Source: a virus (taxonomy: Duplodnaviria > Heunggongvirae > Uroviricota > Caudoviricetes). Taken from it: 12,621 nt of DNA. The stretch spans positions 1-12,621 of IMG/VR virus record IMGVR_UViG_2872180393_000003, one strand, 5' to 3'. The number at the start of each line of letters is the position of its first letter. Positions within the stretch are counted from its first letter, which is position 1. The notes beneath the pieces are model-generated. The model was given only the letters and a program-made list of their open reading frames with translations, did no database searches and was not told the DNA's origin. Shown here piece after piece: positions 1 through 722 of the stretch. The translations under genes and the position numbers were made by a program.

Positions 1-684
1 TTAAATGCCGAGTGGGAAAATATCATGGCCTTGTTCCTGCCAACTGGTGAGTTGTTGCTGTTGGGCGGAGGTTCGATTTTCACCGCACCACACCAGCAAT
101 GTACGGCCTTCGAATAGTTCAGGGCGTAGTTGATTGAGCGAGTGGGCGAGGACATCAATGCGCCATCCTTGTTGACTGGCAATCCAGCCCTCCAGCCACA
201 GACGGGTGGTATCCTGAATATTCCAGCCAACCACCAGCGCATCTTTACCCTGTTTTTTACGTGCCGAAGCCAGACAAATGGCGATGTAGTTGATCAGTAC
301 GCCGTCGAGGATCGCCAGCAGCGCCTGGAGAGTCGGTTGTTGGCACTGAAGCCGTCGGCGCAGAGGAATAAACAGATGTGTGGTGAGTGTCTGGGCGGGG
401 TAATCCTGACCGCGCTCTTTGATCCACGTTCGCAGGCTATGTAGATTGCCGCTTTGCAGGTAAGTCAGTAATGTTTCTTGCTGATCGCGCCAGCCGTTTT
501 GCACATCAACATTTTCATTACTGAGCAGCATTTTAACTTTGCTGACCTGCACGCCGTTGTCGATCCAGCGTTTGATCTCGCGGATCCGGTCAATATCGGC
601 ATCGTTGAACAGCCGATGACCGCCGTCTGTCCGTTGCGGTTTCAGCAATCCGTAACGCCTCTGCCACGCGCGTAACGTGACAGG
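1..684 (-). pseudogene. mlrA: mlrA (yehV) MerR-family curli regulator, 3' portion only; the N-terminal ~26 codons with the start of the HTH are separated by the prophage
   Basis: Minus-strand frame reads ...IPVTLRAWQRRYGLLKPQRTDGGHRLFNDADIDRIREIKRW... to a TAA stop at window positions 1-3, matching MlrA as I recall it. Upstream of codon P (682-684) the frame diverges from MlrA (KLAKSIGLPL instead of MALYTIGEVALLCDIN) and closes at a stop at 718-720. The only in-frame start is TTG at 646-648. Confidence 0.85.
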
Positions 685-722
685 GATTAAAGGTAAACCA
701 ATTGATTTTGCAAGTTTTTATT
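676..722. other. prophage/chromosome junction (att core region) inside mlrA
   Basis: MlrA similarity ends at about 684/685 and the integrase stop codon lies at 723-725. An integrase directly adjacent to the interrupted target gene is the usual attL/attR arrangement. The exact core cannot be set without an uninterrupted mlrA reference. Confidence 0.45.

Follow-up and report, generated by a model that had tools for sequence, protein, structure and literature searches.

Analysis of a 12,621-nt stretch of viral DNA (IMG/VR record IMGVR_UViG_2872180393_000003; hereafter the window) pointed, with a probability of about 0.9, to integration of a lambdoid phage that split the mlrA (yehV) gene, followed by decay of the prophage, a permanent split and loss of the MlrA input to csgD. 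What was read directly from the DNA comprises the junction with its attachment core, the loss of domain sequence, the lesions of the integrase and the rearrangement, while the loss of MlrA function is suggested by published O157:H7 work on the same joint. The window was 100% identical to the NCBI chromosome CP026846.1 (assembly GCA_002949495.1).

In the proposed history, a lambdoid phage with an integrase of the VT1-Sakai / CP-933V / BP-4795 type would have entered by site-specific recombination at a 20-bp core in mlrA codons 17-23. The far prophage end would have received the promoter and start codon along with codons 1-16, which encode the first helix of the helix-turn-helix (HTH), and codons 17-243 would have remained beside the integrase as attL. 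An IS66-family element would then have removed integrase codons 1-87 and presumably all that lay upstream of them, including xis. IS600 copies would have inserted into the remnant and rearranged it, and a +1 frameshift would have struck the integrase in this genome alone.

The mlrA stub and the attachment site

The 3' portion of mlrA was located at window positions 1-684 on the minus strand and covered codons 17-243 with the stop codon at 1-3, as supported by the protein alignment to K-12 and by Pfam domains. The minus-strand frame of window 1-717 was identical to residues 17-243 of K-12 MlrA (227/227, 0 gaps), with the residue match beginning at PVTLRAWQRRYG... in the stub translation, and the DNA identity to K-12 mlrA over window 1-690 was 99.4%. 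Translation of window 1-759 gave an open minus-strand frame bounded by stops at 718-720 and 1-3. Alignments showed that mlrA similarity ended at 684/685, with phage DNA beyond, and in the source-genome locus yohO-yehW-yehX adjoined the stub as in K-12. The first canonical start left in frame was the TTG of mlrA codon 29 (646-648, minus strand), which gives a 215-aa product; neither the ORF list nor the translation showed an earlier ATG, GTG or TTG after the stop at 718-720. The native promoter, start codon and codons 1-16 were absent on the stub side, and phage DNA occupied the place of the codons.

The first-pass annotation had described a MlrA frame intact from its stop codon, with TTG as the only start, that switches to phage-type DNA next to an integrase. 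It had set an alignment of the 1-684 frame to MlrA and a comparison with an uninterrupted mlrA locus as tests of this description, and both agreed with it: the frame aligned over its 227 residues, the junction was placed at 684/685 with a same-strand tyrosine-integrase gene at 723-1750, and the attachment core was recovered. The break itself had been put at about codon 27 and was found at codon 17 (682-684); the earlier figure appears to have been taken from the TTG-initiated ORF. Of the span 1-722 to which the first-pass annotation refers, 1-684 was mlrA, while 685-722 belonged to the phage arm of the attachment site.

The attachment core of 20 bp, CCTGTCACGTTACGCGCGTG, was located at 665-684 (minus strand), corresponding to mlrA codons 17 to 23, and was common to attB, attL, attR and attP. 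It was defined by aligning the attB of K-12, the attL of the window, the attR of UTAK-5, the attP of phage phi330 and the attL of VT1-Sakai. In the GenBank record of VT1-Sakai, precisely the same 20 bases form a misc_recomb feature within "truncated yehV" and carry the label "attachment site of Enterobacteria phage VT1-Sakai", which bears out the earlier placement of a prophage in mlrA (yehV). The attL phage arm (685-722, minus strand) lay between the integrase stop and the core and contained the in-frame stop at 718-720 and an ATT at 700-702. Its sequence agreed fully or almost fully with the attL/attP arms of UTAK-5, VT1-Sakai and phi330.

Decay of the integrase and the prophage remnant

The cognate tyrosine integrase was found directly beside attL as a pseudogene (723-1750, minus strand). 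It contained nucleotides 261-1287 of a 1287-nt gene, with codons 1-87 missing, and comparison with the intact 428-aa UTAK-5 integrase revealed a one-base insertion (+1 frameshift) at window position 1097, after codon 305. The Pfam Phage_integrase domain was split across two ORFs, one half of the catalytic domain being out of frame with the other. The inserted base was not in a homopolymer and was absent from the sister genome CP026845.1 and from intact copies. The frameshift is a later, private mutation, because the sister genome shares the truncation without the inserted base. Nucleotide identity of the integrase was 93.5-94.8% to VT1-Sakai, BP-4795 and YYZ-2008, and 99% to UTAK-5. No excisionase gene was left, and the position of xis in UTAK-5 and VT1-Sakai was filled by IS66/IS600 sequence; the intact int frame and xis of an excision-competent prophage were both lacking. 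The integrase had earlier been called dead, and the replacement of codons 1-87 by the end of an IS66-family element, together with the frameshift at 1097, agrees with that call.

The IS66-family terminal fragment that truncated the integrase (1751-1916, minus strand) contained an inverted-repeat end, GTAAGCGCC..., at 1751 and a transposase C-terminus (Pfam DDE_Tnp_IS66_C, E = 3e-14). Only 166 bp of this element survived because an IS600 copy sits inside it. This first copy of IS600 (IS3 family; 1917-3180, plus strand) joined the truncated phage gene O on its right side, had the two-ORF orfA/orfB layout (100 and 272 aa), and was 99.4-99.8% identical to elements of Shigella and E. coli plasmids that are annotated as "IS3-like element IS600 family transposase". 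The second copy (11423-12621, minus strand) was inverted relative to the first and ran off the window. The joint between int and IS66 was present in none of the 5426 complete RefSeq E. coli genomes. The joint between the IS66 fragment and IS600 also occurred on the Shigella boydii plasmid CP026876.1, an accession neighbouring that of the source chromosome. Along with the IS600 load, these two observations hint at a lineage of the Shigella/EIEC type.

Two ORFs (3043-3816 and 11395-11559) started inside the IS600 right end (MRFSTIVSVVTLVWGISPRQ...) and read into the adjacent DNA; the one from the left copy fused with the truncated phage gene O into a chimera of 257 aa. These ORFs are probably annotation noise, and they could mark outward transcription from IS600.

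Between the two IS600 copies lay a scrambled prophage remnant (3181-11422), recognised from ORFs, Pfam labels, tRNAs and phage matches, without the int-proximal xis or attR. Its plus strand carried a truncated O, a DnaB-type helicase, ninB, dam and ninE, and its minus strand carried a HigA/HigB-like pair, a 156-aa terL stub, terS, KilA-N, Rz, lysozyme, holin, tRNA-Asn, tRNA-Thr and a truncated Q. These 8.2 kb of phage genes were in a non-phage order, with O, Q and terL truncated, and the phage DNA of the window beyond the integrase resembled P22/Sf6/HK022-like replication and nin modules.

The early genes O'-P-ninB-dam-ninE (plus strand) met the late genes (minus strand) head-on at 6457-7718. 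A toxin-antitoxin pair, HigB/Gp49-like and HTH_3 (HigA-like), at 6498-7206 and the large terminase stub at 7248-7718 were located at this joint, which predates the IS600 events because the sister genome has the same joint. The tRNA-Thr(TGT) and tRNA-Asn(GTT) genes at 10630-10785 separated the holin from the truncated Q antiterminator (11046-11438), an interval in which Stx phages have their tRNAs and stx. No stx-sized ORF was found between the truncated Q and the holin, and the window contained no stx genes.

In CP026846.1, the outer end of the second IS600 copy abutted a truncated ycaM followed by ycaN-ycaK-pflA-pflB (locus L005, 1-5097), and not btsS or attR. The ycaM-pflB locus lies far from mlrA in K-12. 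The arrangement indicates an IS600-mediated chromosomal rearrangement, by which the remnant has been separated from the attR end, since IS600 adjoins ycaM/pflB in place of btsS. A check of the other prophage end for the mlrA 5' fragment had been proposed; the end was found in CP026846.1, but it consisted of IS600 abutting ycaM/pflB, not of attR. The view that the split of mlrA would be permanent is well founded, given that integrase, excisionase and a far-end attR are all missing. The earlier wording, "probably fixed", is if anything an understatement for an element whose int is doubly inactivated.

The sister chromosome CP026845.1 (978-3684) carried the same IS66-cut integrase without the +1 frameshift and kept a longer IS66 transposase at the int joint. 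Its mlrA stub was cut again by IS600 at window position 470. This chromosome retained more of the prophage, including ant, rha, rusA, ninH, full Q, full O, cII, cro, cI and N.

Domain loss in MlrA and alternative readings of the stub

The Pfam MerR_1 profile matched K-12 MlrA over positions 1-68 of 69. The 233-aa reading from the ATT at 700-702 covered profile positions 16-68, and the 215-aa reading from the TTG at 646-648 covered positions 26-68. The narrower HTH model PF00376 scored 26.2 bits, below its curated cut-off of 28.2. The stub retained the recognition-helix half of the MerR HTH but MerR_1 positions 1-15 were gone, in line with the first-pass annotation, which had reported loss of the first part of this motif; a complete N-terminal MerR-type HTH with its native start was not present. 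In MerR-family proteins the first 15 or so residues form helix 1 of the helix-turn-helix, and the assignment of helix 1 in MlrA follows from this family knowledge and the Pfam profile coordinates. No MlrA was found among solved structures, the nearest being CarH/LitR-type and other MerR relatives. The two C-terminal domains, MlrA_helical (PF22270, E = 9e-32) and MlrA_C (PF22267, E = 1.5e-33), were full length in the stub.

Judged by published O157:H7 work, the stub would be unable to give a DNA-binding MlrA, and the MlrA input to csgD, and with it to curli and cellulose, is probably lost. The undamaged state of the remaining frame, which still encodes two complete C-terminal domains, was counted against this explanation. 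The stub may not be completely inert, because recombinant distal MlrA fragments restored some Congo-red affinity, though not biofilm, according to PMC5931665 (which cites Uhlich 2013 and 2016, and Shaikh & Tarr 2003).

A residual or altered role for the distal fragment, which would be expressed by read-through and modulate CsgD-dependent traits without binding DNA, was considered unlikely. The C-terminal domains are both undamaged and do not differ from those of K-12, although this identity may merely reflect a recent event, and a GAGG lies about 9 nt upstream of the codon-29 TTG. A scan of window 1-2000 found no minus-strand intrinsic-terminator-like site between the integrase stop at 723 and the mlrA stub, so read-through transcripts are possible; the single minus-strand terminator-like site in the scan was at 1070-1057, inside the integrase remnant. 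Distal fragments are strongly transcribed upon prophage induction, and recombinants alter Congo-red affinity (PMC5931665). In the window, however, the region upstream of int no longer contains the prophage's own promoters and induction circuitry, with IS66/IS600 sequence from 1751, and the same scan found no minus-strand promoter-like site upstream of the mlrA stub, the counts of both kinds of site being at shuffle level. A more specific form of this idea, in which the HTH-less stub (residues 17 or 29 to 243) expressed by read-through would act as a DNA-independent CsgD/c-di-GMP modulator, for example by titrating MlrA partners, was held to be quite improbable. If it were true, the thousands of genomes with the "disrupted" allele would have a neo-functional regulator and not a null.

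The stub was annotated at NCBI as a non-pseudo 233-aa "HTH-type transcriptional regulator MlrA" (1-702, minus strand) that starts at the phage-derived ATT of 700-702, with coordinates 12001-12702 in locus L001 and 17017-17718 in the source-genome locus L005. The PGAP CDS was also present in UTAK-5, and the exact 233-aa chimeric protein was found on at least 1000 contigs, under the labels MULTISPECIES [Enterobacteriaceae] and E. coli O28ac. Gene-presence surveys that rely on this ATT-start label would miscount functional mlrA.

Some phages whose integration site lies in a tRNA gene or in icd bring a replacement gene end. A comparable restoration here, in which a new N-terminus and start would come from the attL arm and the 233-aa "MlrA" would be a working regulator, has very little probability. 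The non-pseudo PGAP call and the recurrence of the exact protein speak for it, as do the phage arm being in frame with mlrA and an 8-nt word, CAATTGGT, common to the arm and the native 5' end (..SIG.. vs native ..TIG..). However, the sole "start" is a non-canonical ATT with no Shine-Dalgarno recognisable by eye, the likeness of the arm to the native sequence is at chance level, and the product is without the MerR_1 positions that correspond to HTH helix 1. Strains with this joint also lack normal curli, and in the majority of the strains tested the defect was relieved when intact mlrA was supplied in trans or the prophage excised.

As a candidate substitute N-terminus, the 60-nt arm was compared by local alignment with the 60 nt that precede the core in native mlrA, using 2000 shuffles. 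The arm was rejected, with only the 8-nt word shared, a likeness equalled by 343 of the 2000 shuffles, and no canonical start.

The joint between mlrA and the integrase was present in 453 of the 5426 complete E. coli genomes, counted where at least 80% of window 1-1800 was covered, and an identical joint was found in two NCBI chromosomes. An assembly artefact, with mlrA intact in the organism and phage DNA mis-joined at about 684, had been named as the finding that would overturn the earlier reading, and it is scarcely credible: its sole ground, the repeated IS elements in which the window is rich, brought no support, whereas the joint lies exactly on the 20-bp core documented as a phage attachment site, away from any IS boundary, and recurs base for base in these 453 independent genomes and in the second NCBI chromosome, CP026845.1, so that chance and assembly error are ruled out.

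Curli expression and related prophages

The effect of lambdoid insertion in yehV/mlrA on curli, which the earlier note had cited as known, is documented in PMC3874044 and PMC5931665. A prophage was present in proximal mlrA in 53 of 55 O157:H7 strains, limiting curli and biofilm (PMC3874044). In O157:H7, curli and biofilm were abolished or lowered by the insertion and were restored by intact mlrA or by excision in most strains tested (PMC3874044, PMC5931665), and intact mlrA in trans restored curli in 2 of 4 non-O157 STEC strains with the insertion (PMC3874044). Prophage occupancy of mlrA is a recognised cause of low curli and biofilm in many pathogenic E. coli, and its detection is useful for phenotype prediction. 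The prophage split of mlrA is thoroughly documented and already known, and the present case is an ordinary fossil instance, which adds an example fixed beyond reversal in a genome that is rich in IS600 and probably of Shigella/EIEC type. If the host is of such a lineage, the split of mlrA may carry no phenotypic weight, because curli genes there have commonly become pseudogenes already, as is usual for the curli clusters of Shigella (PMC6854044, citing Sakellaris 2000).

Among known prophages, the Stx1 prophage Sp15 / VT1-Sakai (and CP-933V) in yehV of O157:H7 occupied the same gene with the same 20-bp core and the same codons. The VT1-Sakai integrase had the same orientation beside the 3' part of mlrA, with 94.2% nucleotide identity, and the attL arm was near-identical. 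The published consequence for Sp15 is also the same, namely loss of the MlrA DNA-binding motif with reduced curli and biofilm (PMC3874044, PMC5931665). Sp15 is inducible and can excise (PMC5931665), whereas the element in the window has a truncated and frameshifted int, no xis and no stx, and is broken by IS66/IS600.

The prophage of UTAK-5 (NZ_CP157152.1) showed 99.3% identity over window 1-1750 and shared both the joint and the integrase allele family. Its order was mlrA', int (428 aa), xis, about 41 kb of phage DNA, a 66-bp (22-codon) mlrA 5' piece and btsS. UTAK-5 keeps an intact int, xis, the full prophage of about 41 kb and attR, whereas the window keeps none of these. BP-4795, YYZ-2008 and the Stx2a phages 1447/WGPS2 carried integrases of the same family as that of the window (93.5-94.1% nucleotide identity), but they are complete phages with a cargo unlike the window remnant. 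The match to YYZ-2008 spanned the whole joint including the core, where the YYZ-2008 record notes a direct repeat attributed to insertion of the prophage, while the BP-4795 and Stx2a phage records begin inside the core, at about window position 665. In phage phi330 (PV189401.1, about 560-640), the core CCTGTCACGTTACGCGCGTG was present twice in tandem at attP; either the duplication is real, or it may have arisen when the phage genome was assembled from prophage ends.
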